Origin: Thermodesulfobacteriota bacterium
GTDB lineage: Bacteria; Desulfobacterota; WTBG01; CAIYCZ01; CAIRTM01
NCBI GenBank assembly: GCA_028278025.1
Contig: JANQFE010000094.1
Location: 5,484 to 69,483, forward strand
Length of the DNA stretch: 64,000 bases
Direction: 5' to 3'
The position numbers were made by a program, and so were the translations under genes. Every line of letters starts with the position of its first letter. Within the stretch, counting starts at the first letter, position 1. This document shows positions 7,360 through 63,714 of this stretch, piece by piece. Under the pieces are notes generated by a model that saw only the letters and a list, made by a program, of their open reading frames with translations, was not told where the DNA came from and ran no database searches.

Positions 7360-7392
7360 GTTTTTTTATTGGATTTCAGGGAGGATATGTAT

Positions 7393-9371: not shown

Positions 9372-9374
9372 CTT

Positions 9375-10205
9375 ATGAACAACACAACCAAACTTGATTC
9401 ACTAAAACATATTCTGGTTGATCTTAAAAGCGTTCTGGTAGCCTTCTCGGGAGGAGTTGACAGCACACTGCTGCTCAAGGTTGCCAGGGACGTGTTAAAG
9501 GACCATGTTGTAGCAGCCACTGCAGTCTCTGCCCTCACCCCGTCTCATGAGAAAGAGACCGTCAGAGAAATTGCCGAGCTTCTATCTGTACGGCATGTTA
9601 TTGTCAGCGTGGATGCGCTTGCACTGCCCGAGGTAGCAGCCAACACACCTGATCGCTGTTACTGGTGTAAAAAGGCCATCTTTAAGGAATTTACTGCCCT
9701 GCAAAAAAAGTATAAGGCAGCCTGCATTATAGACGGCTCAAACTATGATGACACCGGTGATTACAGGCCCGGCATGCGCGCCCTCAAAGAGCTGGGGATA
9801 CGAAGCCCCTTGCGGGAAGCAGGCCTGAGGAAAGATGAAATACGCAAACTTTCTAAAAGTATGGGGTTGCCCACATGGAATCTTCCCTCGCTTGCCTGCC
9901 TTGCCAGCCGTTTTCCTTATGGAACCAGGATAACCGCAGAGGCCCTCAGGCGCGTCGACCAGGCTGAAGCGTTTCTTCGCAGATTCGGGTTTTCTCAGCT
10001 CAGAGTGAGACACCACGGGGATACAGCCCGCATTGAGGTTCCCCGGGAGGATATGCCAAAATTACTTGACCCCAGAACACATAAAGAAATTATCGATTAT
10101 TTCAAATCCTTAGGCTATACTTATATAACACTTGACCTTGCAGGCTATAGAACCGGCAGCATGAATGAAGTCCTGAACACGCAACAGAAGAAAGAATACA
10201 GTTGA
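9375..10205 (+). CDS. LarE-like PP-loop ATP-dependent sulfur transferase (Cys-trio type)
   Basis: PP-loop FSGGVDSTLL. CYWCKK plus a later LACLASRFPYG give a CxxC...C trio. Starts 3 nt after the mnmA stop. Confidence 0.7.
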   Translation: MNNTTKLDSLKHILVDLKSVLVAFSGGVDSTLLLKVARDVLKDHVVAATAVSALTPSHEKETVREIAELLSVRHVIVSVDALALPEVAANTPDRCYWCKKAIFKEFTALQKKYKAACIIDGSNYDDTGDYRPGMRALKELGIRSPLREAGLRKDEIRKLSKSMGLPTWNLPSLACLASRFPYGTRITAEALRRVDQAEAFLRRFGFSQLRVRHHGDTARIEVPREDMPKLLDPRTHKEIIDYFKSLGYTYITLDLAGYRTGSMNEVLNTQQKKEYS

Positions 10206-17091: not shown

Positions 17092-17168
17092 AAAAAACCT
17101 CACATTGTTTACAGAAACAATCATTTGTGAAGCAGAACACTCTCATAGTGCACAGAATTCTTCACCCC

Positions 17169-17441
17169 TTACTTCTTTTCTGCGACCGGCGGTGCTTTTG
17201 GGATATCAACTCCTTCAGCTTTCATCGTTTTGATGTACTTCTCCGGATTTTTCTCAAAAGTGGCTATGCAGCCCGGGCAGCAGAAATAAATCCGTTCGCC
17301 GTTATAATCACTAAAGACTTCCTTATTAATTGTACCGCCCATAACCGGACAGACTGTTTGCTCTTTTGCATAAACCATCTCTGCACCGAGCAGTGTAACT
17401 GAAAAAAAAATAAACATGATCAGAGTTGCTGTTTTTTTCAT
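17169..17441 (-). CDS. secreted YHS/TRASH-type metal-binding protein
   Basis: Signal peptide, then CPVMGGTINKEVFSDYNGERIYFCCPGCIATFEKNPEKY, which matches the YHS pattern. Confidence 0.8.
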   Translation of the reverse strand: MKKTATLIMFIFFSVTLLGAEMVYAKEQTVCPVMGGTINKEVFSDYNGERIYFCCPGCIATFEKNPEKYIKTMKAEGVDIPKAPPVAEKK

Positions 17442-17554
17442 GATAATTCTCCTAGCTTTTTTTATGGTTTTTAGTTTTTATTCATCAGCTATTATTTACT
17501 CTTTCTACACTTTGCTATCATCTTAAACCGTAATCCAAATTCCAAAATCTGCAA

Positions 17555-18901
17555 TTAGAACAGACTTTTCCCCATGACTACTTCCAGAGCAGCCAGGTCT
17601 TTCTCATAATCGGTCATTACCTTGCGATATTGGATCTCATAATTAAAAAGCGTAATTTGGCTGTCAAGCAGTGTCAGAAAATCAATTTTACCGACCCTGT
17701 AAGCTTCAATAGCAGCATCAAGGCTCTGGCCGGCCTGGGGAATGATGCTGTCTTTATACAGTGCGATGAGATCCTTACCCCGGATAATCCTGGCATACAG
17801 ATCACTGGTTTTAAAAAAAATATCATTCCTGACGCTTTCATAGCGTGAGCGTGATTGTGCAATTCGATGGTAGGCCTCAGCAACACCCCGGTTTTGCTTA
17901 CTCTTAAACCACAGGGGAACATTGACCCCCACTAAAAGTGTGAACAAACTCGGTCTCTCGGTGTCAAAATCCAGAGGGCGCGTTGTAACCTCATTCACAT
18001 TGCCCTGAGCATCAGTAATCCGTGATTTGCTTGAAGTTGCATGCGGTCGTTTGTCACGCTGCCCATAGGCGGCTGTAACAGTAAACTTGGGGAAATACAT
18101 CTTTTTCGCCAGAGCATGCTCTGCTTCGGTTTTTTTTATGTCGTGCTGCAGGGCCTGCAGCAGTGCATTTTCAGCCAGGACAATTTCTTCAAGCTCATGT
18201 TTTTCAAACGCAAACTGCGTAACCTGTAAGGCCGGGCTGCCTTCCAAAGCAGCCGACGGCGCACGGTTTAGAAGAGTGTTCAGCTCTGCTTGCAGGGTCT
18301 CCTTTTGCTGTCTGAGGTCTATCAGTTTTTCCTGCATTTTATACAGCTCAACCTGGGCCTTGAGAATATCTTCCTGGAGGCCTTCACCAACTTCATACTT
18401 TGCCTGGCTTATTTCCACAAATTCATTAAGCAGCTTCTCATTAGCCTCAGTTATCTTAAGTGCCTCGTTAACAAAAAAAATCTGGTAGTAAGCTTTTTTA
18501 ACACTGCTGACAATGTTTAACCTAATATCCTCCAATTCGCTTTCTGCGCCCTTGGCAGTTTCAATGGCCGCCTTTTCCCGAAGTGATGTTACGCCGAAAA
18601 AGGGAATATTCTGCTTAATGGCGACATACTTCTGGGTCATATCCTGGGTGTCAAAATCAAAATCATCGGTAGGCACATTGCTCACTCCGAAAGTTAACAG
18701 GGGATCATCCCAGGCTTTAACCTGGGCAGGGCGCTCCCATAGGGCATCCTTTCTTTTCTGGAAGACCATTATTTCAGGATTGTTTGCCAGGGCTTCCTCA
18801 ATGAGAACATTCAGGTTTAAAATATTTTCCGCACAACACTGGCTGTATATAACAAGCAAAGGTATAGTGCAAAACGTAACAAATAAACTAATTTTCTTCA
18901 T
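17555..18901 (-). CDS. TolC-family outer-membrane efflux protein (CusC-like)
   Basis: 448 aa with a signal peptide and two coiled-coil repeats with conserved turn regions. Lies upstream of the YHS-cusB-cusA genes on the same strand. Confidence 0.8.
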   Translation of the reverse strand: MKKISLFVTFCTIPLLVIYSQCCAENILNLNVLIEEALANNPEIMVFQKRKDALWERPAQVKAWDDPLLTFGVSNVPTDDFDFDTQDMTQKYVAIKQNIPFFGVTSLREKAAIETAKGAESELEDIRLNIVSSVKKAYYQIFFVNEALKITEANEKLLNEFVEISQAKYEVGEGLQEDILKAQVELYKMQEKLIDLRQQKETLQAELNTLLNRAPSAALEGSPALQVTQFAFEKHELEEIVLAENALLQALQHDIKKTEAEHALAKKMYFPKFTVTAAYGQRDKRPHATSSKSRITDAQGNVNEVTTRPLDFDTERPSLFTLLVGVNVPLWFKSKQNRGVAEAYHRIAQSRSRYESVRNDIFFKTSDLYARIIRGKDLIALYKDSIIPQAGQSLDAAIEAYRVGKIDFLTLLDSQITLFNYEIQYRKVMTDYEKDLAALEVVMGKSLF

Positions 18902-23787: not shown

Positions 23788-23934
23788 TTATATGTTAGTT
23801 GTTAGTGGTCAGTTGACTATTCTATTCGAAACCGATGCTTCTATCACACACAACGAACTACGGACAACAACAACTGACATCATCTTTTTTCTTATTCAAC
23901 ATTAATTATTACTTTAGATTTTTATTATAAACAT

Positions 23935-26637
23935 ATGCAGCAAACAAAAACCATCCCTGTCTACGGCATGACCTGCGGCCACTGCGTCAAAGCCGTTACC
24001 ATGGCGCTTGAGGATATCGAAGGGGTTAATGAGACCACCGTCTCGCTTGATGAATCTTGTGCTACGGTAACATTTGACGACAGCAAAACAGACCTTGATG
24101 CCCTCAGGGATGCAATTGCTGAAGAGGGCTACAGCTTTGAACCCCGGGATCAAAACACAGAACCATGTGCAACTATGCAGACAGAAGAAGCTGCACTGAC
24201 GGTGCTTCCTGCTGCAACAACTGTTTCCCGCTTTTCCATAGAGGGAATGTCCTGTGTTAACTGTGCTGCTGCCATAGAGAAGGGGTTTACAGACGTTCCG
24301 GGCATAGGAAAAGCCTCCGTCAATTTCCCCCTAGAGTGCCTGGTTGTTGAGCATGATAGTTCCGTAACACCTGAAGACATCTGCAATAAAGTGGCCGATA
24401 TCGGCTATGAAGCCTCAGCGATAGAAGAACAGGAAGAGGACTCAATTGCCTTTAGGATCGAAGGCATGTCATGCGTTAACTGTGCTGCTTCTATTGAAAA
24501 GGCCTTTGCCAAAGCTCCCGGTATAAAAAACGTCTCTATAAATTTTTCCCTGGAAAAAGGTTTTATCACGTTTGACAGGTCCACAACCGACAAGCAGGCG
24601 GTTTTGCATGTGGTAAGCGATGCAGGGTATGTGGCTTTTGAAGAAAAAGAAGAAAAGGCAAAATCTCCACTTGCAAAAAAGGAACGTTTCCGGTTTCTGT
24701 TTGCACTTATTTGTACGATCCCGCTGGTTCTGTTAATGTATACAATGCCCTTTGGACATGTGGGGACCAACTATGCAATGTTTGTGCTGGCTACGCTTGT
24801 TCAGTTTGTTTCCGGACGCTCTTTCTATGAAGGAGCCTATCACTCACTAAAAAACCGTTCAACCAATATGGACGTACTCATCTCCCTGGGAATCTCGGCT
24901 GCTTACTTTTACAGCGTTTTTTCTCTGTTCTTTCTGGATCCCCATGCCCATACCTTCTTTGACAGCTCAGCCATGCTGATTACGTTTATCCTGGTGGGTA
25001 AAATGCTTGAGGCTCGGGCTAAAGGCAAAACCGGCCAAGCCCTTGAAAAAATGTTGTCGCTGCAGGCTGACCGGGCCAGAATCCTGCAGGACGGCACAGA
25101 GCTGATGGTGCCGGCTTCCTCAGTGAAGGTCGGTGACCTGGTTCTGGTACGACCCGGTGAAAAGATACCGGTTGATGGTGAAATTGTTGACGGCACAACA
25201 GCAGTTGATGAATCCATGCTGACCGGAGAGTCGATACCGGTTGAGAAGCAGGCCGGTGCACAGGTTACGGGCGCTACCATTAATACAACCGGTGCAATTA
25301 CCGTCAGAACCGGCCGGGTGGGAAAAGATACGGTGCTTGCCCAGATCATAAAGATGGTTGAAGATGCCCAGGCAGACAAAGCACCCATACAGCGGCTTGC
25401 AGATATTGTCTCCAACTACTTTGTACCGATTGTCGTAACAGTTGCCCTTGTTACGTTCAGCCTGTGGTTTTTTGTTTTTGACGTTACCCCTCCGGCAGGC
25501 TCTACCCGCTTTTTGTTTGCCTTTCAGCTCATGATTGCAGTGCTGGTAATTGCCTGCCCCTGTGCCCTGGGCCTTGCCACTCCCACGGCTATTATGGTAG
25601 GCAGCGGCGTAGGTCTAAACCGCGGTATTCTGTTTAAACGCGCCTCTGTTCTTGAAAATATTTCCAAACTGGAAGTTATATTGTTTGACAAAACCGGCAC
25701 GATTACAGTCGGCAGGCCGGAAGTTGTAGGTGTTTACCCCTATGAAAATTATTCGGAAGATGAAGTGCTCAAAATTGCAGCAGGCGCAGAGGCTCATTCT
25801 ACCCATCCCCTGGCTCAAGCCGTCGTAAGGAAAGCCGGTGTAAAAAATCTTTCCATAGAAAAAGGCCGTGATGTGCATGAGGTCAGCGGTCATGGCATCC
25901 AGTGTGTTGTGCAGGGAGAGGTAATAAAAACAGGCAGTTTGAAGTATGTCAGTGAAAAACAAGATCCGCCCCCGGAGATTATAGACCTGGGCCGCAAACT
26001 TTCTGAAGAAGGCAAGACAACCATCTATGTCGCCCAGAACAATAGTATAATCGGTATACTTGCACTCTCTGATGTGATTAAAACAGATTCACAAGAGGCT
26101 GTCGGCAAGCTTCACCGGTTCGGTATTCGCACCGGCCTCATTTCAGGTGATAACCACGCGGTGGCCCGGACTGTTGCAGCCGAGGTGGGTATTGATGCGG
26201 TAGAGGCCGAGGTGCTGCCCGAGGACAAAATAGATAGTGTTAAGAAATGGCAGCAAAAGGGGTACCGGGTCGGTATGGTCGGGGACGGCATCAATGATGC
26301 ACCGGCACTGGCTCAGGCTGATATGGGCATTGCCATTGGTTCTGGAACTGATGTTGCTAAAGAAACCGGTGATGTGATTTTGGTAAAAAACAGTCTGTTG
26401 GATGTGGAGCGGGCCATACGCTTAGGGAAAAAGACCCTGCGAACCATTAAAGAGAATTTTTTCTGGGCATTTTTCTATAATATCCTTATGATTCCGGTTG
26501 CTGCAGGTGCTTTATATCCTGTTACTGGTTTGACCTTAAAACCTGAGTGGGCCTGTATTGCCATGTGGTTTTCATCTCTAACAGTAGTTGGTAATTCCCT
26601 TTTGCTGAGGCGGTTTGGCAGAAAACTTGCTGAATGA
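23935..26637 (+). CDS. copA: copper-translocating P1B-type ATPase with three N-terminal HMA domains
   Basis: Three GMxCxxC domains (GMTCGHC, GMSCVNC twice), [29 protein letters not shown]. Confidence 0.95.
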
Positions 26638-42700: not shown

Positions 42701-43579
42701 ATGGAATTGAAATCGACGCTTCCTTGCAAACACGAGAAAAGAGTCACTCAACAGGTTAAGCCCACAATTGACCTTTTGACCAACATGGATACTTTACATC
42801 CAGAGGTCTTACGCCAACACCAAATTCAGCCAATTGATTACAAAGGCGGTTTGGTTTTCCGGTCCGCCATTGAGAGTATCCGAGGTACTTTCATTGCGTC
42901 ATCAACAACTGGTCGTGAGGGGCTAGTCAACGATGTGCTTGAGAATCTGTCGCAACGGGAAAAAATCGTAGAGTTTACAAGGAGCGGTTCGAGTCGTCGT
43001 TATGATTTCTCTGTAGCCTTGGAGCGTAACCCTGATTACTTTGTTGCTGTAGAAGTGAAAGGGGGCGAAGGGAACAGTATAAATATTTCTGAACGCCCAT
43101 TGTGGGCAAAAGAGTTTGCTGTTTGGAGTCATCTGGATGGTGCAATAGTGAATCAACCTGCGCACGGTGCTCATTCTGTGATTAATCGGCTGACAAATGA
43201 ACTTGTAAGACGTCACAAGATAGTGGATGTGCTATTTTTCAAAGACATTTTGTGTGGTACGCGGGCTAGACCATGTCCGAAATACCCGAATCGAAAAGAT
43301 AGTATTGGACTTGAAACATCACCAGACATCTTTCTTTTCCCGACAAGAATCCCGTCTATTGATGACCCTGAACCACCTGTTCATAGTCTTGCTAGTCTCA
43401 GATTGCCCGTACTCATACTTGACTTGTTCAACATTCCTTCAAATCAGCGCAAAAATCATGTTTGGGAGGTACATGTCAAAGTCGAGGAACTTCCCAATAC
43501 TAGAGCAAGACGTATTGTTCAAATCAGACATAAAGGAAAGGTCGTAGATGAAAGTGCATCCCGGTCTTGGCGGATTTAG
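42701..43579 (+). CDS. putative type II restriction endonuclease (PD-(D/E)xK)
   Basis: RRYDFSVAL-x10-YFVAVEVKGG gives a D...E-x-K signature. Its stop lies within the RBS region of the methyltransferase gene. No specific family recognised. Confidence 0.55.
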   Translation: MELKSTLPCKHEKRVTQQVKPTIDLLTNMDTLHPEVLRQHQIQPIDYKGGLVFRSAIESIRGTFIASSTTGREGLVNDVLENLSQREKIVEFTRSGSSRRYDFSVALERNPDYFVAVEVKGGEGNSINISERPLWAKEFAVWSHLDGAIVNQPAHGAHSVINRLTNELVRRHKIVDVLFFKDILCGTRARPCPKYPNRKDSIGLETSPDIFLFPTRIPSIDDPEPPVHSLASLRLPVLILDLFNIPSNQRKNHVWEVHVKVEELPNTRARRIVQIRHKGKVVDESASRSWRI

Positions 43580-43590
43580 AGGTTCCTACT

Positions 43591-44763
43591 ATGGTTAGAG
43601 CAGTAATTGGGGGCCGACAACCCCAACTTTTTGATGATACGCAAACCATCACAGATTTGGATGCCAGCCTTTGGCATGGATCATTCAATGGCCGTGAAAG
43701 TTCGCTACAACAACTGTCTCCATATGTCGGTAAACTCAAATCTGGAATGGTGAAAGTTCTTATATCGTTATATTCCGAACCTGGCAATGTGATACTTGAT
43801 CCATTCTCAGGGTCCGGAGTTGTCCCGCTTGAAGCTGCTCTTGCGAATCGAAGTGCTTGGGCTAATGATTTAAGTCCATATGCTTATGTTTTGACAAGGG
43901 GAAAACTCGAAGCTCCAGGTAGTGAAAAATATGCAATAGAGCAAGCTAAGACACTCATTAGGGCCGCCGAAAACAAAACACGACACATAGATATTGTTGA
44001 CGTACCGAAATGGGTCCAGCAATTTTTTCATCCTGATACATTGAAAGAAACGCTGGCAGCAGTCCAAATACTACTCCAAGATAACAACTACTTTCTGCTC
44101 TCATGTCTGTTGGGTATACTTCACCATGTTCGTCCAGGTTTTCTTTCTTACCCAGCCAGTCATCTTGTTCCATACTTACGGGCATCCAAGTACCCTCCCG
44201 AAGAATACCCACAGATGTACCAATATCGGGACTTACGTTCAAGACTACTTGCCAAAGTAAAACGTGCTTACCGGCGACCTATGCTGCCGGTAAATTGGGA
44301 GCAACGCCAGTACAAGGTCTGGCAGACCAACTCAATGGACTTGCCGGTTGAAGCTAATAGTGTTGATACGATCATCTCAAGCCCACCTTATTTTGGGGCA
44401 CTTGATTATGCGAGAGATAATCGTCTACGACTTTGGTTTTTGGGCTGTGAGAATTGGAAAAAACTCGACTCCTCCCTTACAGCAAATAATAAGGTCTATC
44501 TGCCACAAATGACAGCATGCCTTCAAGAAATGGTACGTGTTCTACGTCCAGGTGGACATTGCGTATTGGTTCTTGGTGACGTCGAAAAGTACGGGAAAAC
44601 ACGACGTACTGCTGAGATATTGTCAGAACTAGCTTCTGAAGGAACTCAAAATACACTTATCACAAAGTTGATTTATGACGATCGTATCCCTGATGAAAGA
44701 CGTTCAAGACGTCTAACTAGTACCACAAAATTTGAGCGTATTCTGGTAATGCAGAAACAATAG
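43591..44763 (+). CDS. N4/N6 DNA methyltransferase, alpha-like motif order
   Basis: ILDPFSGSGVV (motif I) lies about 190 aa before IISSPPYF (motif IV). ATG 43591 lies 8 nt after GAGG. Confidence 0.85.
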   Translation: MVRAVIGGRQPQLFDDTQTITDLDASLWHGSFNGRESSLQQLSPYVGKLKSGMVKVLISLYSEPGNVILDPFSGSGVVPLEAALANRSAWANDLSPYAYVLTRGKLEAPGSEKYAIEQAKTLIRAAENKTRHIDIVDVPKWVQQFFHPDTLKETLAAVQILLQDNNYFLLSCLLGILHHVRPGFLSYPASHLVPYLRASKYPPEEYPQMYQYRDLRSRLLAKVKRAYRRPMLPVNWEQRQYKVWQTNSMDLPVEANSVDTIISSPPYFGALDYARDNRLRLWFLGCENWKKLDSSLTANNKVYLPQMTACLQEMVRVLRPGGHCVLVLGDVEKYGKTRRTAEILSELASEGTQNTLITKLIYDDRIPDERRSRRLTSTTKFERILVMQKQ

Positions 44764-44806
44764 AAAATAGACGGATAAATAGGGACATCCATGATACGTT
44801 TATGTC

Positions 44807-44834
44807 AAGGAGAATCTAGAGATTCTCCTTTTTT
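44807..44834 (+). terminator. rho-independent terminator after methyltransferase 1
   Basis: AAGGAGAATCT/AGATTCTCCTT 11-bp palindrome followed by TTTT. Nested inside an outer ATCCATGAT/ATCATGGAT repeat. Confidence 0.7.
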
Positions 44835-44879
44835 AGATCATGGATATCTCTATTCAATCGATTACGTTCATACCATTTA

Positions 44880-44920
44880 TTGACAGGTATGATTCATAAG
44901 AGAGATATAAGGTTTTTTAG
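44880..44920 (+). repeat. direct repeat R1b upstream of R-M module 2
   Basis: ttgacaggtatgattcataagagagatataaggttttttag. Copy of R1a. Confidence 0.7.
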
Positions 44921-44990
44921 CCTGTAAGTCGGCTAGAACATAGTGAAAGCCGACAAACACGAATACAAAAGAATTGCGATAAAAAATTTT
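44921..44990 (+). repeat. direct repeat R2a (contains a GTCGGCT/AGCCGAC hairpin)
   Basis: About 60 of 70 positions are identical by hand alignment to 46797-46865. Confidence 0.7.
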
Positions 44991-45132
44991 TTTTATTATC
45001 CACATAAGTATCCTATACGAAATAGTAATGTGTACGCTGGATTGAGATTTTTTGGATATGATGTTCCCCTTGATTGATAGATAAATTTTAAAACCAGTTA
45101 TGCCAAGCGTTGGCCTGGAACACTAATCTTAA

Positions 45133-45873
45133 ATGAACGGAGCTATGACGACAAAAGTAATCGATAATTTGGAAAACAATATTTCGAATGCTGTTGCCCA
45201 TTACTGGCAAACTCGCCAGTCGCAAAGGGAAAAGCAAAAAAACAGAGGGATTTCTGATGCCGGGTTGAGAAGTGCGGTAACTGGCGGTGCTCAAATGGAC
45301 GGCTTTATCCGTCTTTTCACTGAAATAATTATTGAGGCAGGAATGAATGAAAGATATGTTTTTAGAAAAAGACTGCTTGAGCTACCCGGGTATTTCAGGT
45401 CGACAAAGGAATGGGATTTGCTCGTCGTCAAGAATGATCAATTGGTTGCAGTAATCGAAGCAAAGTCACAGGTCGGTCCCTCTTTTGGAAACAACTTTAA
45501 TAACAGAACGGAAGAAGCAATGGGCAGCGCTCTTGATCTTTGGACAGCCTATAGGGAGGGTGCATTTACCGCTGGAGTTCAGCCCTTTCTTGGGTATTTT
45601 TTCATGCTTGAGGATTGTGATGCTTCAATTCGTCCTGTCAGGGTTAAGGAGCCCCATTTTAAAGTCTTTCCGGAATTTGTTGGATCATCATATATGAAAA
45701 GATATGAGATCTTTTGCCGTAAACTCGTCCTCGAACGTCATTACACAGCGGCATCATTCATAACCTCCGAAAGCCGGACAGGTCTTAATGGTGTGTACCG
45801 GGAACCTGCAAATGATCTCTCATTGACGATTTTTCTCAAATCTCTTGTAGCCCACATTGGAGCCTTTGCATGA
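45133..45873 (+). CDS. type II restriction endonuclease, possibly XhoI/PaeR7I-like
   Basis: EWDLLVVKNDQLVAVIEAKSQ (D...E-x-K) followed by VGPSFGNNFNNRTEEA, which I recall as XhoI-family-like. Stop overlaps the methyltransferase start (ATGA). Confidence 0.6.
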   Translation: MNGAMTTKVIDNLENNISNAVAHYWQTRQSQREKQKNRGISDAGLRSAVTGGAQMDGFIRLFTEIIIEAGMNERYVFRKRLLELPGYFRSTKEWDLLVVKNDQLVAVIEAKSQVGPSFGNNFNNRTEEAMGSALDLWTAYREGAFTAGVQPFLGYFFMLEDCDASIRPVRVKEPHFKVFPEFVGSSYMKRYEIFCRKLVLERHYTAASFITSESRTGLNGVYREPANDLSLTIFLKSLVAHIGAFA

Positions 45874-46796
45874 AAAGTATTAAACATAAGACTTGTCAGA
45901 GGCTAATTAACGGGGATGCTAGAGATCTGAGGTTCTTAAATGATGAATCCATACATCTCGTTGTTACATCGCCGCCATATTGGAATTTAAAACGCTATAA
46001 TGAACATCCAGACCAATTGGGACATGTCAATGACTATGAGTCCTTTTTAGAGGAACTTGAAAAAGTTTGGAAGGAAGTTTTTCGGGTATTAGTTCCCGGT
46101 GGAAGGCTAGTTTGTGTCGTTGGTGATGTATGTGTTTCAAGAAGGCGGTTTGGACGGCACCTTGTTTTTCCTTTACACGCGGATATCTGCGTATTATGCC
46201 GAAAAATTGGCTTTGATAATCTTAATCCCATTATTTGGCATAAAATCACAAATGCAAGTTTTGAAGTCGAGAACGGATCAAAGTTCTTGGGCAAACCGTA
46301 TGAACCGAATGCAATCATAAAAAATGATATGGAATTTATCTTAATGGAGAGAAAGCCAGGAGGATATCGAAAACCGACTGAAGAGCAAAGAAACTTAAGT
46401 AGAATCGCCAAAAAAGACTTTAATATCTGGTTCCAACAGATATGGAACATCACCGGTGCATCAACCAAAACTCATCCTGCCCCATTTCCTCTGGAACTTG
46501 CAACTCGTTTGATCAGAATGTTTTCCTTTTATGGGGACACAGTTTTAGACCCATTTTGCGGTACCGGCACAACAATGATAGCGGCTTTGAGAAATGGAAG
46601 AAACAGTATAGGAATCGATATTGAACCTGAATATTGTCGTATGGCCGCACGACATCTAAAAAAAGAGCGTAGCAATCTTTTCATAAATATAGACTTGATA
46701 TTTGAGAAAATGGTAGCTGACAATTCAGGTCAAATGCAAGTTTGTGAAGACCAAGCACTTTATGAAGTTAAATCAGCCAGAAAATCACTGGAATAG
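45870..46796 (+). CDS. N4/N6 DNA methyltransferase, beta-class motif order
   Basis: LVVTSPPYWN (motif IV) is near the N-terminus and VLDPFCGTGTT (motif I) near the C-terminus. Confidence 0.9.
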   Translation: MKSIKHKTCQRLINGDARDLRFLNDESIHLVVTSPPYWNLKRYNEHPDQLGHVNDYESFLEELEKVWKEVFRVLVPGGRLVCVVGDVCVSRRRFGRHLVFPLHADICVLCRKIGFDNLNPIIWHKITNASFEVENGSKFLGKPYEPNAIIKNDMEFILMERKPGGYRKPTEEQRNLSRIAKKDFNIWFQQIWNITGASTKTHPAPFPLELATRLIRMFSFYGDTVLDPFCGTGTTMIAALRNGRNSIGIDIEPEYCRMAARHLKKERSNLFINIDLIFEKMVADNSGQMQVCEDQALYEVKSARKSLE

Positions 46797-49448: not shown

Positions 49449-50780
49449 CTACGACATACTGTCACTGAGTGTCTTGGACTGCTGCTTGGTGATCTTTTCC
49501 CAGATTTCAGGACGCTCATTTTGGATGCGCTCATCATTTTTGTGAATCTCACGCCACAGCATACGCGGAGAGTCATACTGGCTCCAGCTTCCGTTCATGG
49601 TAACACCGTCAAGCAGTGAAAACAGATAGACGACTTCTTCATCAGTATAATAGGGAATCAGAGCATAGCCGCTGGTAACCTGCATCATTCCGTCGTCGTT
49701 GAACTCAAAAGTCTCAAGCCAGGTCTTGGTATATTCTTCAAAGCCGGGTTTGCCGTCAAGCTCCTTCACAAGCGCATCTGCAGCCCAATACCCGCAGTTG
49801 AGCGCCCCCTGGGCCTGGGTCTCAACAAATGCTGCTGCATCTCCCACCATCAGGCAGTTGCCCTTGTAGGGCTTTTTCATGGGTGAATATGCTTTGGTGG
49901 TACAGCAATGGGATTGCTCGATTTTGGCATTTTCAAACATATAGGCTACCGGGCTTTTCTTGGTAAAAAACTCATACAAAGCCCAGGGCATCTGTTTGGG
50001 GTGACCGATAAGGATTACGTCAGCCCATTCAAAATGCCCTGCAGGTCCGGTCCCCAGCAGCGGGGCAAAATTTGATCCGTAGCAAAGGCCCCAATACCCG
50101 CACCATTCTGCCGGGTTGTAATCTTTTACATTTGACATATACAGGGCCAGGCACAAAGCCGAAGCAAAATAAACACGTCCTTCGTTCATGCCAAGCGACT
50201 GGGCAACCTGGGCAGTGGCACCGTCTGCACCAATCATCTTTTTGGCCTGTATCTTAAACTTTTTACCTTTACTCACACATTTGAGTTCTACTCCCTGGGC
50301 AGTATCGATAGCCTGGTAGCAGGTTGTTTCATTCAGGTACTCAACGCCAAGCGCCAAAACCTCATCAAGAATCTGCTTGAGCAACCCGGCCTTATCATAT
50401 TTCCAGGCAAACGGCCGCTTGTCGGGCCAGGCATAATGAGCATGGTGTGCACGATCGGCAGAGTAATAGAATTTATCCCGCACCGGGCAGAGCGGACCCT
50501 TGTAGTCTACTTCCCAGCCAAATTTTGTAGATTTGATCTTGTTACGGCTGTTCGGGCCGATGAATCCATCCGGTCCGATTTCCTCACCGGTCTGCACCAC
50601 GATCGTATCTCCATTGTAGTTTTCATCCAGGATAATATGTTCGCTGCAGTAGCGGGTCATTTTGGAGATATCCTTGCGTTTTTCTATGATAAGCACTTTA
50701 AGCCCTTTTTTGGCGGCCCATTTTGCCGTATGCAGTCCGCCGGGGCCGGCTCCAACTATGGCTACATCATAAACAGACAT
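49449..50780 (-). CDS. FAD-dependent oxidoreductase (geranylgeranyl-reductase/FixC-like fold)
   Basis: YDVAIVGAGPGGLHTAKWAAKKGLKVLIIEKR dinucleotide fold and later GDAAAF. AAGGAGGAAACA RBS. Confidence 0.7.
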   Translation of the reverse strand: MSVYDVAIVGAGPGGLHTAKWAAKKGLKVLIIEKRKDISKMTRYCSEHIILDENYNGDTIVVQTGEEIGPDGFIGPNSRNKIKSTKFGWEVDYKGPLCPVRDKFYYSADRAHHAHYAWPDKRPFAWKYDKAGLLKQILDEVLALGVEYLNETTCYQAIDTAQGVELKCVSKGKKFKIQAKKMIGADGATAQVAQSLGMNEGRVYFASALCLALYMSNVKDYNPAEWCGYWGLCYGSNFAPLLGTGPAGHFEWADVILIGHPKQMPWALYEFFTKKSPVAYMFENAKIEQSHCCTTKAYSPMKKPYKGNCLMVGDAAAFVETQAQGALNCGYWAADALVKELDGKPGFEEYTKTWLETFEFNDDGMMQVTSGYALIPYYTDEEVVYLFSLLDGVTMNGSWSQYDSPRMLWREIHKNDERIQNERPEIWEKITKQQSKTLSDSMS

Positions 50781-50809
50781 GTCTGTTTCCTCCTTACATT
50801 GGTATGTTA

Positions 50810-51748
50810 TCAGCTAATTGCTCCAACCGGGCAATAAATTTCACAGGTATGGCAGGCCATACAGTTCTGAGGGTACACCTTTGACTTTTTATCATAACCG
50901 CCCCTGTCATCCAGTTCCAGCGCACCGACCGGACAGTTTTCCATACAGGAACCGCACCCCAGGCATTCATCTTCATCAATAACCGGATACTGGCGGCAGG
51001 AAGGACACAGATTAAAAAACTGCGGCAAACTATGAAACTCCTTCGACAGTTTATCCAGATGGGGCACCGGGGCATAGGGATTGCCGCACTTCGTACATTC
51101 CTGTAGCTTGTATTCAACCTGCCAGTTCAAAATTTCTCTTTTGGGCCCTTCCTGCTCACACCCTTCAGGCGTGCATAACGCTGAAGTTTCAAGGTCATTC
51201 TTCTTGATAATTCCGGTGGGGCATACAAATGCACATGAACCGCAGGCAATACAGTCCTCAGCTGACCGGTGAAAGGGACTGTCAACCACTTTCTCGGTAC
51301 CGTTACCGGCAAACTGGATTGCACCGGCCCCTACAACTTCATTACAGACTCGTACGCACAGTCCGCATAAAATGCAGTATTCATTCTCTTTGCGCCATGC
51401 AAAAGCACTGTCGGCAATGCCGTATTCCCGGGCCAACTGCTGGACGATTTTCACATTGGGGCAGCGGTTCAGCAGCAGCTCGATCACCAGCTTCCGGCCC
51501 TCAATAACCTGGGCAGTGTCTGTTTTAACAACAAGGCCTTCCTCAACCGGACAAGTGCATGATCCCTCGATAGTGCTTCTGCCGTTTTTGGTAATTTCAA
51601 CAAGACATAAGCGGCAGGCTCCGTAGCCTTCCAGAGCATCGTTGGAACAGAGTGTCGGTATGTCCACCCCATTGACTCGTGCTGCTTCAAGTACGGTTGA
51701 GCCCTCTACTGCTTTTACTTTCTTGCCATTGATTGTTAGTTTTACCAT
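50810..51748 (-). CDS. NuoG-N-terminal-like [2Fe-2S]/[4Fe-4S] protein with an extra C-terminal 2x[4Fe-4S] ferredoxin
   Basis: MVKLTINGKKV...CRLCLVE (2Fe-2S), CILCGLCVRVC, CIACGSCAFVCP, CLGCGSCMENCP, CMACHTCEIYCP. ATG 51748 follows AGAGGGAA. Confidence 0.8.
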   Translation of the reverse strand: MVKLTINGKKVKAVEGSTVLEAARVNGVDIPTLCSNDALEGYGACRLCLVEITKNGRSTIEGSCTCPVEEGLVVKTDTAQVIEGRKLVIELLLNRCPNVKIVQQLAREYGIADSAFAWRKENEYCILCGLCVRVCNEVVGAGAIQFAGNGTEKVVDSPFHRSAEDCIACGSCAFVCPTGIIKKNDLETSALCTPEGCEQEGPKREILNWQVEYKLQECTKCGNPYAPVPHLDKLSKEFHSLPQFFNLCPSCRQYPVIDEDECLGCGSCMENCPVGALELDDRGGYDKKSKVYPQNCMACHTCEIYCPVGAIS

Positions 51749-51799
51749 AAGTCCATTCCCTCTATTTCTCATTCTGAATTATTGCTCCATATTGCTTTG

Positions 51800-53794
51800 C
51801 TAATTTATTCTCTTAATCATCCGCTTTTCCAGCTCTTTGGGAAAATGCTTCATGACAGATAGAATCGGAGCTGCAGCAGTTTTGCCAAGCGCACAGAAGG
51901 AGGCATCATTCATTGCTTTGCCCATACGCGCAACCAGGCTTACCTGGTCCGGGGTGCCGCGGCCCTCAGCAATGGTAGTAATAATTTCACCAAGTTGCTT
52001 AACACCTTCCCGGCAGGGGGTACACTTGCCGCAGGATTCTTCCAGGAAAAACTGAGTGAGAAATTTGGCCATATCAACCACATCACCATCCTCATCCATT
52101 ACCAGCAGTCCGCCTGAGCCCAGCAGGCTGCCGGCCTTGGTAAGAGACTCATAATCAAGCTTGATTTTGAGAGATTTTGCAGGCAGCAGCCCCCCGGAGG
52201 GACCACCGGTCTGAAAAGCCTTTACCTTTTTTCCGCTGGCAGTGCCCTTACCGAATGTTTTGATGATATCTTCAACCTTAGTACCAAGGGGTACTTCTAC
52301 CCAGCAGATCTGGGCAACATTGCCGGAAAGCGCCACGATTTTTGTGCCTTTGCTTGCGGGAGTCCCAATGCCGGCGAACCATTTCCCGCCGTGCATGACG
52401 ATCAGCGGTATGTTAGCCAGTGTTTCAAGATTATTTATCACGGTTGGTTTGCCGAAAAGACCCTTTTCAACAGGCAGAGGCGGACGGGGACGGGGCTCAC
52501 CAAAAGATCCTTCCAAAGAATTAAGCAAGGCGGTTTCCTCACCACAAATATAAGCACCGCCACCACGCTTGACCTTCAAGGTAAAGGAAAATCCCGACCC
52601 CATAATGTTTTTACCAAGCAGACCCATCTGCTGTGCTTGTTGAATGCCGGTCTCAACCCGCTCAATGGCCAGCAGGTAGCGGTCGTTAAGATATATATAG
52701 CCTTCCTGCGCACCAATGGCATAACCGGCTATGATCATGCCTTCAATAACTGCATGGGGGTCCGATTCAATAAAACTTTTATGCAGCCCGATCTCGGGGT
52801 CGCCCTCACTGCCGTTGCAGACAATATATTTCTCATTATCTTCGGCTTTGCTGCAAGCTTCCCACTTGATACCGGTAGGAAACCCGGCGCCGCCCCGGCC
52901 TCTCAGTTTTGAAGTTTTGACTTCCTGGATAACCTGCCGGGGTGTCATGGAGGTTAAAGCCTTTGCAAGGGCTGTATACCCCCCCAGGGCAATATATTCT
53001 TCAATACGCTCAGGGCTGATAGTACCGGCATTTCTGGTAAGCAGCTTCTTTTGTTTCTTGAAAAAATCTATCTTGCTGTACTCCTTAACACCGGAAGCCG
53101 TTTTGGGCAGCTTGCCTTTGCTGTATTTTATGGGCTCAATACACACAGCCGGTTTTTGTTCATCGTGGCGCATTATCACCAGGTCATCTACTATCTTGCC
53201 GTTTTTAAGGGCCGTAACAATATCCGCAGCACGGTTACTATCTGCATTGCCATAGGTAATGCGGGGTTTGCCGGCCCGGATCACATCTACGATAGGCTCG
53301 GCATAGCTCATACCGTTACTGCCGACCATGACAACATCTGCTTTGATTTTTTGCTTTTTCAGTTCCTGTTCCAGGGCTGCCGCAACACTTTCTGATCCTC
53401 TGGCAAGTCCACAGGATGCCGCTCCAACCGTGATACGGATTTTTTCGGAACACAGCAGCTGCAAACCAAGTTTTTTGATCTTTGCGAGGTCATCAGCTTT
53501 TTTTACTTTGCCCATCACTTTCCACTGCTTTTTGGTGCGTTTGGATGCAGCCTGTGCGGACGAGTCTTGCTTATCAATGCCCAGGGCTGCCATAAGCACG
53601 CTGCGCTGCGGCTCCGGTAAATCCTCAGAGACAAATTTCTCCACAATTTTCTTACTGATCTTCTTTCCGGCTGCCTTACCGGCAAGCATCTCCAATATCT
53701 TCGGCCTCATTCCCTCACGCATCCCTTCAGGAACTGCAGCCATTACCTTGTCAAATGCTTTCTGTCCATCTGGTAACCATTTTATATCTGCCAT
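51800..53794 (-). CDS. NuoF-like NAD(P)H/FMN subunit with an N-terminal PCP_red-like module and a thioredoxin-like domain
   Basis: GRGGAGFPTGIKWE, YICGEETALLNSLEG and ESCGKCTPCREG. N-terminus MADIKWLPDGQKAFDKVMAAVPEGMR. Confidence 0.85.
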   Translation of the reverse strand: MADIKWLPDGQKAFDKVMAAVPEGMREGMRPKILEMLAGKAAGKKISKKIVEKFVSEDLPEPQRSVLMAALGIDKQDSSAQAASKRTKKQWKVMGKVKKADDLAKIKKLGLQLLCSEKIRITVGAASCGLARGSESVAAALEQELKKQKIKADVVMVGSNGMSYAEPIVDVIRAGKPRITYGNADSNRAADIVTALKNGKIVDDLVIMRHDEQKPAVCIEPIKYSKGKLPKTASGVKEYSKIDFFKKQKKLLTRNAGTISPERIEEYIALGGYTALAKALTSMTPRQVIQEVKTSKLRGRGGAGFPTGIKWEACSKAEDNEKYIVCNGSEGDPEIGLHKSFIESDPHAVIEGMIIAGYAIGAQEGYIYLNDRYLLAIERVETGIQQAQQMGLLGKNIMGSGFSFTLKVKRGGGAYICGEETALLNSLEGSFGEPRPRPPLPVEKGLFGKPTVINNLETLANIPLIVMHGGKWFAGIGTPASKGTKIVALSGNVAQICWVEVPLGTKVEDIIKTFGKGTASGKKVKAFQTGGPSGGLLPAKSLKIKLDYESLTKAGSLLGSGGLLVMDEDGDVVDMAKFLTQFFLEESCGKCTPCREGVKQLGEIITTIAEGRGTPDQVSLVARMGKAMNDASFCALGKTAAAPILSVMKHFPKELEKRMIKRIN

Positions 53795-53820
53795 CTTCCC
53801 TTCTCCTTTCAGGGATTAAA

Positions 53821-54744
53821 TCATTCGTTGAAGATTGCTTCTAATTTAGCTTGTGCCTGTACTCCGGAATAAATCTCTCCATCTATCATTATTGCAGGAT
53901 CCATGTTGGGGCATCCAAGATCACGGGCTGTCTCTAGTGTGATATCAGCTCCTGTTTCGGCAATTTTAGTCTTTATCTGTTCCAGCAGGGCACCGCCACC
54001 TCGTGCATGTGCACCGGTAGAGGTGCATACCGTGACGATATGTTTGTTTGGTTTTTCAAGTCTAAAGGCTGCATAGGAGGTAATCAGACGATAAAGAGTG
54101 CTCTGGAATATATTCTTTTGCTGGCTGATAAGCACCAGGGCTTCACGGGGCACATAGCCGAACTCTTCCTGGACCGCATGCAGAATGCCGATTACGGTTT
54201 CCTGGCCTCCCGGGGTATTTGCCAGAATTTCTTCGACTTTGGTCAAGTCAACCCCGCCCATAGTTGCAAAAGCCTTGAGTATATTGGTTTTAAAAGGATC
54301 TGGCACTATTTCCTTGACAATTGCCGTAATGTGTTCTTCCTTAATGGGGCCGCCCTGGGCCTTCTCATTAGCGATGGTCATGAGTTTGCCGCGAAAAACT
54401 TCCCGCATCATTTCAGGAACTTCCTGAAGCATGCGCTCAAACATGGTCTCGCTGTTGCCTTCCCATCCGGCAGCAGCAGGGGCAGGTGCAGGTGCAGCAG
54501 CCTGCTTGTCGCCACCTTCAGCCTTCATACCCAGGGCTGCCATCAGAGCGCTGCGCTGCGGTTCCGGCAGGTCTTCTTTAACCCATGTTTTAACAAGCTC
54601 TGCATCGACCGGCTGACCGGCGGCTTTGCCTGCAAGCATTTCCAGCAGTTTCGGCTTAATAGCGTCCCGCATGGCCTCCGGCACTGCCTGCATCACTTTG
54701 TCAAATGTCTTCTGTCCATCTGGTAACCATTTTATATCTGCCAT
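53821..54744 (-). CDS. NuoE-like thioredoxin-fold subunit with two N-terminal PCP_red-like modules
   Basis: C-terminal half LHAVQEEFGYVPREAL...HIVTVCTSTGAH...LGCPNMDPAIMIDGE resembles NuoE/HoxE. N-terminus MADIKWLPDGQKTFDKVMQAVPEAMR. Confidence 0.7.
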   Translation of the reverse strand: MADIKWLPDGQKTFDKVMQAVPEAMRDAIKPKLLEMLAGKAAGQPVDAELVKTWVKEDLPEPQRSALMAALGMKAEGGDKQAAAPAPAPAAAGWEGNSETMFERMLQEVPEMMREVFRGKLMTIANEKAQGGPIKEEHITAIVKEIVPDPFKTNILKAFATMGGVDLTKVEEILANTPGGQETVIGILHAVQEEFGYVPREALVLISQQKNIFQSTLYRLITSYAAFRLEKPNKHIVTVCTSTGAHARGGGALLEQIKTKIAETGADITLETARDLGCPNMDPAIMIDGEIYSGVQAQAKLEAIFNE

Positions 54745-58928: not shown

Positions 58929-59780
58929 TTATTTCCAGGCAATCAGCAAGGTTGTATTGGGCAAATCAATTTCTTTCTGGGCTCGTATATCAAACAGAAA
59001 ATGGTCTTTAAAGTGCTGCTCCAGAACGGGTCTAATATCATCGTAAAAAAGCGGCTGTACACCGATCCGTTTGGCAATTTCATCATATGCATACAGCCTG
59101 CCTGTATTATTAAAATAGTCCCCAAACACTACCAGATCCGCAACCCGGGCAAGATTTTCTATTGCAGGAATAGTAGCATACACTATTGAGGCCCGTTCAT
59201 AGAGCAGGCACGGCTGGTGAACCAGTGCGCGCAACTCCTGAGACGGCATATTTCTTATATCCCACAGGAATGTTTCCAGGCTAACTTGAGAATAAGTTTC
59301 CGTCAGTTTTTGCATGTTTTCTAAAACCACCGGATTAGCATCCGTTATTATCAAGTTGGGCTGCCCGCTTGTATCACCCCTCTGATCGAGCATAATACCG
59401 GTCAGATTACCCCTGCCAGCACCAATCTCAATAAGTGTTTGTACCCCGGCAATCCTGGCCAGCCGAAGTGAAATTCTTGCAATCAGCTCACCCCATGTTT
59501 TATAAAATGATGATTGGGCTACCTCCGCAAAAACAGCCCGCAATTTCGGATTAGCCCAGTCAAACGTGCCAGCTGCCTCCATTTCCAGCACTACCTCCAT
59601 AAACCTGTACTCGGTGACAAGTGCTGGGGGGATTTCTGCTTCCTGTACCTGCTCACCGTCTGACATACGCTGCGAAGCCTCTGCCCACAAACGCCAATCG
59701 GCAAAATGCTCCACCATAAAACTACGATACTCCTGTTCCAAATCACTTAATTCGGCCATGATGATATCTTTTGTCAGCAT
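58929..59780 (-). CDS. class I SAM-dependent methyltransferase
   Basis: LIEIGAGRGNLTG motif I. ATG 59780 follows GGGGGTG. Confidence 0.75.
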   Translation of the reverse strand: MLTKDIIMAELSDLEQEYRSFMVEHFADWRLWAEASQRMSDGEQVQEAEIPPALVTEYRFMEVVLEMEAAGTFDWANPKLRAVFAEVAQSSFYKTWGELIARISLRLARIAGVQTLIEIGAGRGNLTGIMLDQRGDTSGQPNLIITDANPVVLENMQKLTETYSQVSLETFLWDIRNMPSQELRALVHQPCLLYERASIVYATIPAIENLARVADLVVFGDYFNNTGRLYAYDEIAKRIGVQPLFYDDIRPVLEQHFKDHFLFDIRAQKEIDLPNTTLLIAWK

Positions 59781-59871
59781 ACTGCACCCCCTTCTGTTGT
59801 GTTGTTTAACGTTACATGTAAAACATAAAGTGTAATGCGTTAAGTGTGAGCAGTAATGGCAAAACAAAAAA

Positions 59872-60053: not shown

Positions 60054-60677
60054 TTATCCCCTAAGCATAAAAGTTTCGATTAGCCTTACTGCTGCTTGAT
60101 GAGCATCATCAGCATTATAGCCGATGTCCTCTCCACTGTAAGCGGTATAAAACAAACCGTATACAACCCGTTCAATTGTGCCGCACAGAACCTGCCGCAT
60201 CACTGCAGGTTTAAGTGTGCAGTCGAACACGCCTTCTTGCTGACCCTGTCGTATAACATCATCAACCAAGCCGATAATTTTTTTATTTTCCATAATAATT
60301 TCGCGGCGTTTTTTTTGGAGTTTCTTGTCCCTGATCATAACAATATGAGGCAGCCCTTCACTTAAAACCTTTACCAGGTAAAGGGTATTTTCATCTGTAA
60401 GCAGCATTGTCTCAAAGTTTTCAAGAATCGCATATATCTTGTCGATTGGCTTGTGCACTGATTGCAGCTTTGTATTATTCAGATGATTGATTTTTTTCCA
60501 GAAAGTAAGTATTATGGATAAAAGCAAGTCCAGCTTATTTTCAAAATACGAATACATAAAGCCTGTTGAAACCCCGGCCTCCCGCGCAATATCCGAGATG
60601 GCGGCATACTGGTAGCTCTTCTCAGCAAAAACCTTAATTGCCGCATCAATTATTCTGTTTTTTTTGGCATCCTCCAT
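60054..60677 (-). CDS. TetR/AcrR-family transcriptional regulator
   Basis: N-terminal HTH IIDAAIKVFAEKSYQYAAISDIAREAGVSTGFMYSYFENKLDL. Confidence 0.85.
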   Translation of the reverse strand: MEDAKKNRIIDAAIKVFAEKSYQYAAISDIAREAGVSTGFMYSYFENKLDLLLSIILTFWKKINHLNNTKLQSVHKPIDKIYAILENFETMLLTDENTLYLVKVLSEGLPHIVMIRDKKLQKKRREIIMENKKIIGLVDDVIRQGQQEGVFDCTLKPAVMRQVLCGTIERVVYGLFYTAYSGEDIGYNADDAHQAAVRLIETFMLRG

Positions 60678-60779: not shown

Positions 60780-61005
60780 GGGAAAATTGAACTACCTTCC
60801 CGGACATTTTGGGAGGGGGCGATAATCCCGACACATCGGGGTTAGATAATATGAAACGGGCTGGCCCGCATTATTCATGACTATTAGCGGCCAGCCTGCG
60901 GCACCGGGTTGGGCTATGCTTTTTTGCGAAATACGCTAAAAGAAAAAACCAGGGCATATACCCATACCCTGGTTTTGTTTTTAGAAAAGTCCTGCAACTG
61001 GTAAT

Positions 61006-62139
61006 TTACTGTTTCTTTTCAGCAGTCTTTTGGTCAAATTTTTGGGGCTTTTTAGTGACGCCCTTTTTTTTAGGAGGCAATTTTTTTCTGGCAAATACAT
61101 TAACCTCTATATTTTGCTGTTCTGTATCATCAGTTTGTATTAGAATTTTTCCCCGTAGAATTGCCTTGTCAAAACCCTGCTTTATAACGGCTTTTACCTT
61201 GTACTCTTTGCCCTCCTGGATTGTCTCCAGTGACGTTTCAACTTCCGGTATCGTGGACGTAACATCGAGAACTTTAAATGCGGCCTCTGAGGCAGCCTTC
61301 AGGGTAATTGTTTTTTCATTTGGTACGCCTTCCCTGAGCATGCCAAAGGAAAGATAGCGGGGGGTAACGGCAATAGTACCGATTATATCACCATATACAT
61401 AAAGGGACAATTTCTTTACTGTTTCATGGTCGGTATGCAGAGTTATACGCTCCCTGAATTTTCCCACCGTAAGGCCGGGGAGTACTTCGATTTTGATTTT
61501 TTTATTTTTGTTGTTTTCAAAACCTGCCGGGTTTACATCTACCTTGATATGCTCATTCTTTGATTCTACTGAGGTTATGGTAACGCTGTCCTTGGCATTG
61601 CCTGTTAGTGCTATATATTTCGCTGTCGGCCGATATGATTTCTGCAAACGCCCAAAGTTTACCCTGGTCGGACTGGTTGACAAAACAATTTCAACATCAG
61701 CACTGACCGTAAGTTTTAAGGTTTTTCGTTCAGGATCATTAGTGGTAACAGTTATATTTTTGCGCCCTTTACCACCTCTGGTACCGGTCTTGAAGGTGAC
61801 GTCAATTTTTCCTTCCCCGCCCGGGGGAATCTCTTTGGCAGATGCCAAAGCTGCTGTACAGCCTCAGCCTGCCTTTATTTTTTCGATATTCAGTACAGCC
61901 GTGCCTACATTCTTAAACACAAATGTATGCTTCAGGCTTTGGTTCTGAAGCGCCTTGCCAAAATCATAGGCCAGCTCATCGAACTGAATTTTGGGAACTC
62001 CTTCAGCCTGCTCAGGCTGCTGCTTTTGTTGTTCAACGTTTTTTTGTTCCTCAGCCCTCAGCGTTCCAGATATAAAAAGGCTGCATACAAAAACAAGCAT
62101 CACACTACAGATGACCATCACATTTCCAAAACATTTCAT
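61006..62139 (-). CDS. exported DUF1573-repeat protein with an in-frame TGA (candidate selenocysteine codon, or a pseudogene)
   Basis: ORFs 61864-62139 and 61006-61848 are in the same frame, separated only by TGA (61866-61864). The read-through junction is LNIEKIKAG-[TGA]-GCTAALASAKEIPPGGEGKIDVTF. The TGA falls where DUF1573 domains carry the first Cys of SCGCT. Confidence 0.6.
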
Positions 62140-62473
62140 TTAATCATTACCTCCCTAATTAACTGTTAAATTTTTAAAATATGTATATACCACATTGTAA
62201 TATTATACAGAATTATAGTTTAGCATTATTTAAAAAATCTGTAAAGCAAATCAATCCATACTGAACATATCAGATACATTGGTCAATCATTCTAATACTT
62301 CCTTACAACATTAATGATTAATTAACGGTTAAAAAAAAGTTTATTAGGACACCCCCTTTTTTCTATTGACAATACTTATCCAAGCACTATATAAAGTTAT
62401 GTTAATATATTAATAAATAGTGCAATAATTCTATGAGTCCAAAAACCCTGCTAGAGTAAAAGGAGATAGTAAT

Positions 62474-63162: not shown

Positions 63163-63714
63163 ATGAAAAAAAGATATATTTTCCCGGTTTTGTTTGCAAC
63201 TATGCTCTGCCTTGTCCTTTACCTGACCTCGTGCGGTGATAAAGAATCAACAAAAACTAAAAGAACTAAAATTACCGTCAAAGAAGATGATCAGGGTGTT
63301 GAAGTGCGCAGTGAAGACGGCTCTGTAACAATTCAGGGGAACGAAAAAACCGGTCGAATCAAAATAAAAACAGAAGAGGGTGAAGATTTAGAGGTCAGCT
63401 ACAATAAGAATCAACTTACCGATGACTTCCCCAAAGATGTCCCCGTCTATTCACCTGCTAAGGTTACCATGAGCCAGGTATTAAGAGAGAAAAACGCTAT
63501 GGCATCCCTAAGCACACAGGATGACACCACGAAAGTCGCTACATTCTACAAGGAAGCAATGCCGAAAGAAGGCTGGTCTCTTGAAGGTGAAATGAATATG
63601 GGCGCCATGATTATACTCCAGGGCAAGAAGGGTAAGAATCTCCTCAATATCAGTATAGTAAAAGGGGAGGAGGAAACCAGCATTACCATGGCTGTAACGG
63701 AAGATACTGAATAA
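63163..63714 (+). CDS. hypothetical lipoprotein
   Basis: GGAGGGAATA RBS. Signal peptide with lipobox LTSC. Confidence 0.6.
   Translation: MKKRYIFPVLFATMLCLVLYLTSCGDKESTKTKRTKITVKEDDQGVEVRSEDGSVTIQGNEKTGRIKIKTEEGEDLEVSYNKNQLTDDFPKDVPVYSPAKVTMSQVLREKNAMASLSTQDDTTKVATFYKEAMPKEGWSLEGEMNMGAMIILQGKKGKNLLNISIVKGEEETSITMAVTEDTE

Follow-up and report, generated by a model that had tools for sequence, protein, structure and literature searches.

A selenoprotein named 'DUF1573 domain-containing protein' (PF07610) with the motif UGC is listed in two reviews on prokaryotic selenoproteomes (PMC9312934, PMC13188914), both of which credit it to Zhang and Gladyshev 2007. In that study of the Olavius algarvensis symbiont metagenome (PMC1976440), the OS_HP2 family was reported from two TGA-containing sequences that belong to the delta1 and delta4 symbionts. 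The number of Cys homologs given for OS_HP2 in 2007 was zero, and OS_HP2 is not among the examples of the SECIS figure of that paper. 'OS_HP2' appears to be the same catalogue entry as 'DUF1573', a match that was made through the position in the review table and the NCBIfam match, with no explicit source statement. No functional study of the family and no 75Se or mass-spectrometry support for it were found in the literature searched, where the basis of the family is computational prediction.

The gene described in this work is located on the minus strand of a 64-kb stretch of DNA (64,000 nucleotides, hereafter the window) from a Thermodesulfobacteriota bacterium. Judged from its sequence and its homologs, the locus is very probably one intact OS_HP2/DUF1573 selenoprotein gene where UGA is decoded as Sec within the U-G-C motif of the first domain. 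The gene is a further member of this already catalogued family. The score of its protein against the NCBIfam model NF041425 and the listings in the reviews show that neither the family nor its motif nor its interpretation as a selenoprotein is new to the record.

The gene and its surroundings in the window

The coordinates of the gene and of the features around it are shown in Table 1. A sequence-only reading of the window had described two open reading frames, 61864..62139 and 61006..61848, that share the same frame and are separated by one TGA. The translation agrees with that description, and the two open reading frames encode 91 aa and 280 aa (TTG start), respectively. The frame starts with ATG at 62139 and stops with TAA at 61008-61006, and the TGA at 61866-61864 is the sole internal stop between them. 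The residues that flank this stop are VLNIEKIKAG-TGA-GCTAALASAKEIPPGGEGKIDVTFKTG. The N-terminus is hydrophobic and signal-peptide-like, as had also been claimed.

Table 1. Coordinates, strands, and characteristics of the features at and around the OS_HP2/DUF1573 locus.
Feature	Position	Strand	Characteristics
Predicted selenoprotein gene, complete	61006..62139	-	377 codons including UGA = Sec92; from frame translation
In-frame UGA, predicted Sec92	61864..61866	-	Aligns with the first Cys of C-G-C-T; homolog codons TGA/TGC/TGT
Shine-Dalgarno-like AGGGAGG	62150..62156	-	10 nt 5' of ATG 62139; read from the sequence
Predicted N-terminal signal peptide MKCFGNVMVICSVMLVFVCSLFISGTLRA	62053..62139	-	Hydrophobic segment; putative cleavage site
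DUF1573 / OS_HP2 domain	61696..61989	-	Residues 51-148; spans the UGA and contains the U-G-C-T motif
Hairpin 1	61833..61850	-	nt 17-34; CUUUGGC-AUCU-GCCAAAG; 20 nt from UGA to loop; loop without G
Hairpin 2	61813..61829	-	nt 38-54; UUCCCC-CGGGC-GGGGAA; loop starts 40 nt after UGA
Intrinsic-terminator-like hairpin and T run	60945..60976	-	30 nt 3' of the stop codon
TetR-family regulator	60054..60677	-	PF00440; downstream neighbour, separate from the selenoprotein
312-residue protein	58929-59867	-	No Pfam match
183-residue protein, divergent	63163-63714	+	No match in the Pfam scan; PF27226 and AF_1845 in the precomputed contig listing

The profile searches were performed using the query protein with Cys in place of U. 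The match to Pfam PF07610 (DUF1573) extends over residues 51-148 and across the TGA (E = 1e-31; 109.3 bits, cut-off 26.1). It overlaps with a match to the HYDIN/CFA65/VesB-like Ig model PF22544. The model NF041425 'OS_HP2 family (seleno)protein' matches residues 55-150 with 108.8 bits, which is above the curated cut-off of 100.

The AlphaFold2 model of a Cys homolog that is 47% identical to the query (P0004) exhibits three beta-sandwich domains (mean pLDDT 88.9, pTM 0.73). The C-G-C motif of this model is located in a turn that joins two strands of domain 1. The sequence-only reading had placed two more Ig-like repeats after the first domain, and the predicted fold of P0004 agrees with this by proxy. 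The PDB sequence search detected no solved structure for the family. The matches from the fold search were confined to generic proteins with Ig-like domains in tandem (ciliary central-pair proteins, cadherins, and titin) and gave no functional lead.

The TetR-family gene lies 3' of the DUF1573 gene on the same strand in 11 Sec-form loci, which hints at ligand-controlled expression. The TetR, 312-residue, and 183-residue genes recur beside the selenoprotein gene in 10-11 related loci and form a small conserved neighbourhood.

The rest of the window contains several other gene groups. A sulfur-handling run at 262-10205 (+) consists of a homocysteine-biosynthesis enzyme (PF01837), a PLP enzyme, an FAD oxidoreductase, a sulfite/nitrite-reductase-like protein, two ThiF-family proteins, a MnmA-like tRNA thiolase, and a PP-loop protein. 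At 11235-18901 (-) lies a Cus-like heavy-metal efflux set, which comprises an AcrB-family pump, an outer-membrane factor, and a CusB-like fusion protein that carries HMBD domains. A P-type ATPase at 23935-26637 (+) has three HMA domains with ordinary CxxC motifs. An XhoI-family restriction endonuclease lies beside an N6/N4 DNA methylase at 43567-46796 (+), with a second methylase just 5' of them. NuoE-like, NuoF-like, 2Fe-2S/4Fe-4S, and FAD/NAD oxidoreductase proteins are encoded in series at 49449-54744 (-), an arrangement that resembles a soluble module for NADH-linked electron transfer. There is no selenoprotein of the molybdopterin or formate-dehydrogenase type beside this module.

Sec and Cys forms among the homologs

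The protein search identified about 60 close homologs with 43-60% identity. Most of them are only 210-334 residues long and cover 55-74% of the query. Fifteen homolog sequences were inspected. Eight of them start with M/L-ASAKEIPPGGEG or a near variant (for example LASAEQIPPGGEG in P0009), a few codons 3' of the TGA position. Six full-length homologs from the same 15 have S/T-C-G-C-T at the TGA position.

The family is represented in public protein collections (P0002, P0009-P0060) mostly by such fragments, which have a TTG, CTG, or ATG start after the UGA. There are dozens of entries with 250-330 residues that begin at ASAKEIPPGGEG. The signal peptide and one half of the DUF1573 domain are missing from them. 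These fragment entries are a systematic annotation error where gene callers cut the gene at the UGA.

The DNA survey consisted of 19 loci from GTDB species-representative genomes and 80 metagenome loci that were aligned to the first domain. The 19 genome loci are mostly from Thermodesulfobacteriota, "Deltaproteobacteria", and Desulfobacteraceae MAGs, together with CSSED10-310 and unclassified bacteria. The closest relatives of the window gene are Thermodesulfobacteriota MAGs. TGA is present at the aligned codon in 18 of the 19 genome loci and in 41 of the 80 metagenome loci, and the remaining loci have TGC or TGT. The totals are 60 loci with TGA (the window and 59 others; Sec forms) and 40 loci with TGC or TGT (Cys forms). 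The loci that share the TGA have 27-61% protein identity, and a recurrence of this codon in 59 other loci far exceeds what chance would give.

The sequence on both sides of the codon was also compared. The upstream region is complete in 57 Sec-form loci, and each of them has 71-169 open codons upstream of the TGA. A Met followed by a hydrophobic leader precedes the TGA in 56 of the 57 judgeable loci, the exception being L049. Most Sec-form loci have 245-358 codons downstream of the TGA. The region N-terminal to the TGA is approximately as conserved as the remaining protein.

The sequence-only reading had placed the TGA at the first Cys of the DUF1573 motif and had proposed checks on the Cys column and on the orthologs. 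Both checks came out in favour of a selenoprotein. The full-length homologs have S/T/G-C-G-C-T in the TGA column, the column is Cys in all of the 40 loci without TGA, and no other stop or frameshift was found in the TGA loci. On the aligned codons, the alternation of TGA, TGC, and TGT at this one position is to be read as a true Sec/Cys pair.

Two kinds of loci depart from the typical forms. L034 (L034:3193-3258, encoding P0004) is a TGC form near the Sec forms that has kept both hairpins described below with one mismatch each (C19·A32 and C41·A51). It looks like a recent Sec-to-Cys conversion with a decaying SECIS. L075 (L075:2635-2700) and L076 (L076:2199-2264) are activated-sludge contigs that carry divergent Sec forms with UGCTGALLSEKEIPAGGEG. 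Both hairpins are remade from other sequence in these two loci (CUUCUC-UCC-GAGAAG and a G+C-rich second stem), and the architecture is retained.

Two hairpins downstream of the UGA

The RNA alignment consists of the 66 nt from the UGA onwards in 51 distinct Sec-form sequences. The alignment is gap-free and is numbered from the U of the UGA. Two conserved hairpins were identified, and both of them are intact in the window copy (7/7 and 6/6 pairs).

The stem of hairpin 1 is formed by nt 17-23 and nt 28-34, and its family loop is N-U-C-N. The folding energy of this hairpin is -8.6 kcal/mol, with z = -3.7 relative to shuffled sequences. Both partners have changed in four of its seven pairs. At pair 18-33, 27 sequences have C-G and 22 have U-A, and both sites are synonymous (Ala GCY and Lys AAR). 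Pair 21-30 has become A-U in L050 via two synonymous changes. Pair 23-28 is found as C-G, U·G, and U-A. The entire stem is remade from different sequence in L004, L075, and L087. The sequence-only reading had pointed out this hairpin at 61850-61833, starting 13 nt 3' of the UGA, with the caveat that its loop lacks the expected G. The hairpin, its position, and the caveat are all borne out, and the alignment of 51 Sec forms and 38 Cys forms shows that it is conserved, covarying, and specific to the Sec forms.

Hairpin 2 is a conserved element that had been overlooked in that reading. It pairs nt 38-43 with nt 49-54, has the family loop C-G-G-G-N with an invariant loop G, and folds with -8.2 kcal/mol. 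At pair 39-53, 45 sequences have U-A, three have A-U, and one has G-C. Pair 42-50 is C-G in 48 sequences and U-A in two (L016 and L035), where CCC has changed to CCT together with a change of GGG to GAG. L075 exhibits an alternative G+C-rich hairpin in place of hairpin 2. Hairpin 2 is more strictly conserved than hairpin 1, and it is kept in L049, which has lost most of hairpin 1.

Both helices together have 95.3% of their cells paired, and six pairs show changes in both partners. The observed value was attained by none of 500 column shuffles, whichever of the five measures was used, a count that is not a probability as the sequences are related. This result is supported by two controls. Only 46-68% of the cells are paired when the 3' partners are slid by 1-3 nt. 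A third hairpin suggested by single-sequence folding (nt 5-17, GCUGY-ACN-GCAGC) was rejected, as it exhibits no covariation and is equalled by 156-178 of 500 shuffles.

The variation at third-codon positions follows the same structure. The stem positions 21, 30, 39, 42, 51, and 54 are nearly frozen, with an entropy of at most 0.44 bits. The third-codon positions of the loops and unpaired stretches have 0.9-1.85 bits, and loop position 48 is free. There are two exceptions: the loop G45 is invariant though synonymous, and position 60 (Lys) has 0.55 bits.

The hairpins are distributed according to the codon. At least six of the seven pairs of hairpin 1 are present in 47 of the 51 distinct Sec forms against one of the 38 Cys forms, and at least five of the six pairs of hairpin 2 are present in 50 of 51 against two of 38. 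L034 is one of the three Cys-form exceptions. The Cys forms that retain the PPGG peptide encode it with different codons.

An antisense open reading frame of 151 codons at 61493-61948 (+) overlaps the SECIS region and is open in 44 Sec-form loci. The frame is most likely kept open by the strong local conservation of the sequence, with no evidence for a gene.

Probable decoding of the UGA and comparison with known systems

The tRNA scan of the 64-kb window identified no tRNA and no tRNA-Sec. SelA, SelB, and SelD are absent among the 47 Pfam-scanned open reading frames of the window. All frames with one or two internal TGAs in the window were listed and the candidates were inspected, and no second selenoprotein gene was found. 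Two of the stretches considered were rejected. The one 5' of the copper ATPase (23806-24180) has no UxxC HMA extension, and the one 5' of the PALP enzyme is not coding-like. We infer Sec decoding in this organism from the intact, family-typical gene and from its relatives being Thermodesulfobacteriota. Bacteria under Thermodesulfobacteriota are typically rich in selenoproteins.

The UGA at 61866-61864 would be read as selenocysteine to give the U-G-C motif in the first of three Ig-like domains. By analogy with the bacterial selenoprotein genes that have been studied, this decoding would depend on SelB carrying Sec-tRNA(Sec), and SelB would be recruited by the mRNA structure 3' of the UGA that is formed by the hairpins at nt 17-34 and nt 38-54. 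The signal peptide is predicted to direct export of the protein to the cell envelope. Sec92 and Cys94 might conceivably act there as a redox-active selenol/thiol pair that forms a reversible selenylsulfide, or as soft-metal ligands.

Other explanations of the locus have to be weighed against this reading. The sequence-only reading had offered a fresh pseudogene as its alternative, where a recent TGC- or TGT-to-TGA mutation killed an ordinary Cys-type DUF1573 gene. One base change would suffice for that, and the Sec machinery is absent from the 64-kb window, but the same TGA occurs in 59 other loci with intact flanking frames. A TGA that is shared by 60 loci at 27-61% identity, with both flanks conserved, is therefore no fresh nonsense mutation. 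The RNA around the codon is also constrained, as both Sec-specific hairpins are perfectly paired in the window and the Cys forms lack them. The pseudogene is thus highly improbable, and it is the selenoprotein reading that is supported by the codon column, the intact orthologs, and the Sec-specific covarying hairpins. It is also very unlikely that the gene is a relic, intact-looking and dying, in a lineage that has lately lost its Sec machinery so that the UGA now terminates. Sec-to-Cys turnover occurs in the family, as in the TGC form L034, but hairpins, frame, ribosome-binding site, and terminator exhibit no decay in the window copy, and its closest relatives are MAGs from a group that is typically rich in selenoproteins.

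The locus could also be taken for two genes, with a 91-residue peptide that ends at the UGA and an independent 280-residue protein that starts from the TTG at 61848. The dozens of database entries of approximately 280 residues that start with M/L-ASAKEIPPGGEG would agree with that, but such a uniform start is expected from automatic gene callers that meet an in-frame TGA. The split would halve one beta-sandwich domain (PF07610, residues 51-148) and leave the large fragment without a signal peptide, and the 13 nt from the UGA to the TTG contain no recognizable ribosome-binding site. Two separate products are therefore scarcely credible. An alternative code where TGA is read genome-wide as Trp or Gly (codes 4 or 25) has no specific evidence in its favour, and its probability is practically negligible. 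TGA is the ordinary stop of 13 of the 36 Pfam-supported genes in the window, which shows that there is no global TGA reassignment, and the aligned residue of the homologs is Cys, neither Trp nor Gly.

The selenoprotein reading is consistent with what has been reported for the OS_HP2/DUF1573 selenoproteins. The window gene shares with them the PF07610 domain, the position of U-G-C, the existence of Sec/Cys pairs, a stem-loop following the UGA, and occurrence in deltaproteobacterial (Thermodesulfobacteriota) hosts. There is no essential difference, and the window gene is another ortholog. The comparison differs in the size of the set, which is now 60 Sec-form and 40 Cys-form loci against two published Sec sequences and no Cys homolog. 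The survey thus yields a clean Sec/Cys pair and an RNA element that is supported by covariation. The value of these findings is mainly for annotation and their scientific value is modest, since the family, the motif, and the recoding mechanism had been catalogued before. The Cys-type DUF1573 proteins (PF07610, PF22544) resemble the window protein in fold, in the S/T-C-G-C-T motif, in having a signal peptide or lipobox, and in the tandem arrangement of Ig-like domains. They differ in having TGC or TGT in place of TGA and in lacking both downstream hairpins.

The one point that is possibly new is the arrangement of two hairpins, neither of which alone fully agrees with the consensus SECIS. The consensus published for bacteria, as given in a review, calls for 4-16 bp in the stem, 3-9 nt in the loop with G in the first two loop positions, a distance of 16-37 nt from UGA to loop, and a minimum free energy of at most -7.5 kcal/mol. 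According to the same review, a subset of bacterial SECIS elements departs from this model. The Rfam scan of the window gave no match at gathering thresholds, and no curated RNA family covers the element.

It is possible, and in our view somewhat doubtful, that the Sec-insertion signal of the family is the conserved tandem itself, with a proximal G-less hairpin at canonical distance and a distal G-rich loop. In a simpler case, one hairpin may be the SECIS and the other may serve, for example, ribosome pausing or mRNA stability. If both hairpins are required, they would represent a distinct bacterial SECIS class that consensus-based searches score poorly.

Compared with the bSECISearch model and the fdhF type of E. 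coli, the element is likewise a stem-loop within the coding region shortly after the UGA. Hairpin 1 resembles the consensus in its 7-bp stem, 4-nt loop, spacing of 20 nt, and folding energy, and departs from it only in the loop, where N-U-C-N lacks the conserved G. Hairpin 2 resembles the consensus in its 6-bp stem, its loop of 5 nt whose second position is G, and its folding energy, and departs from it only in the spacing, where the distance of 40 nt to the loop is 3 nt beyond the range of 16-37 nt. The family exhibits a tandem of two conserved hairpins, whereas the consensus SECIS has one.
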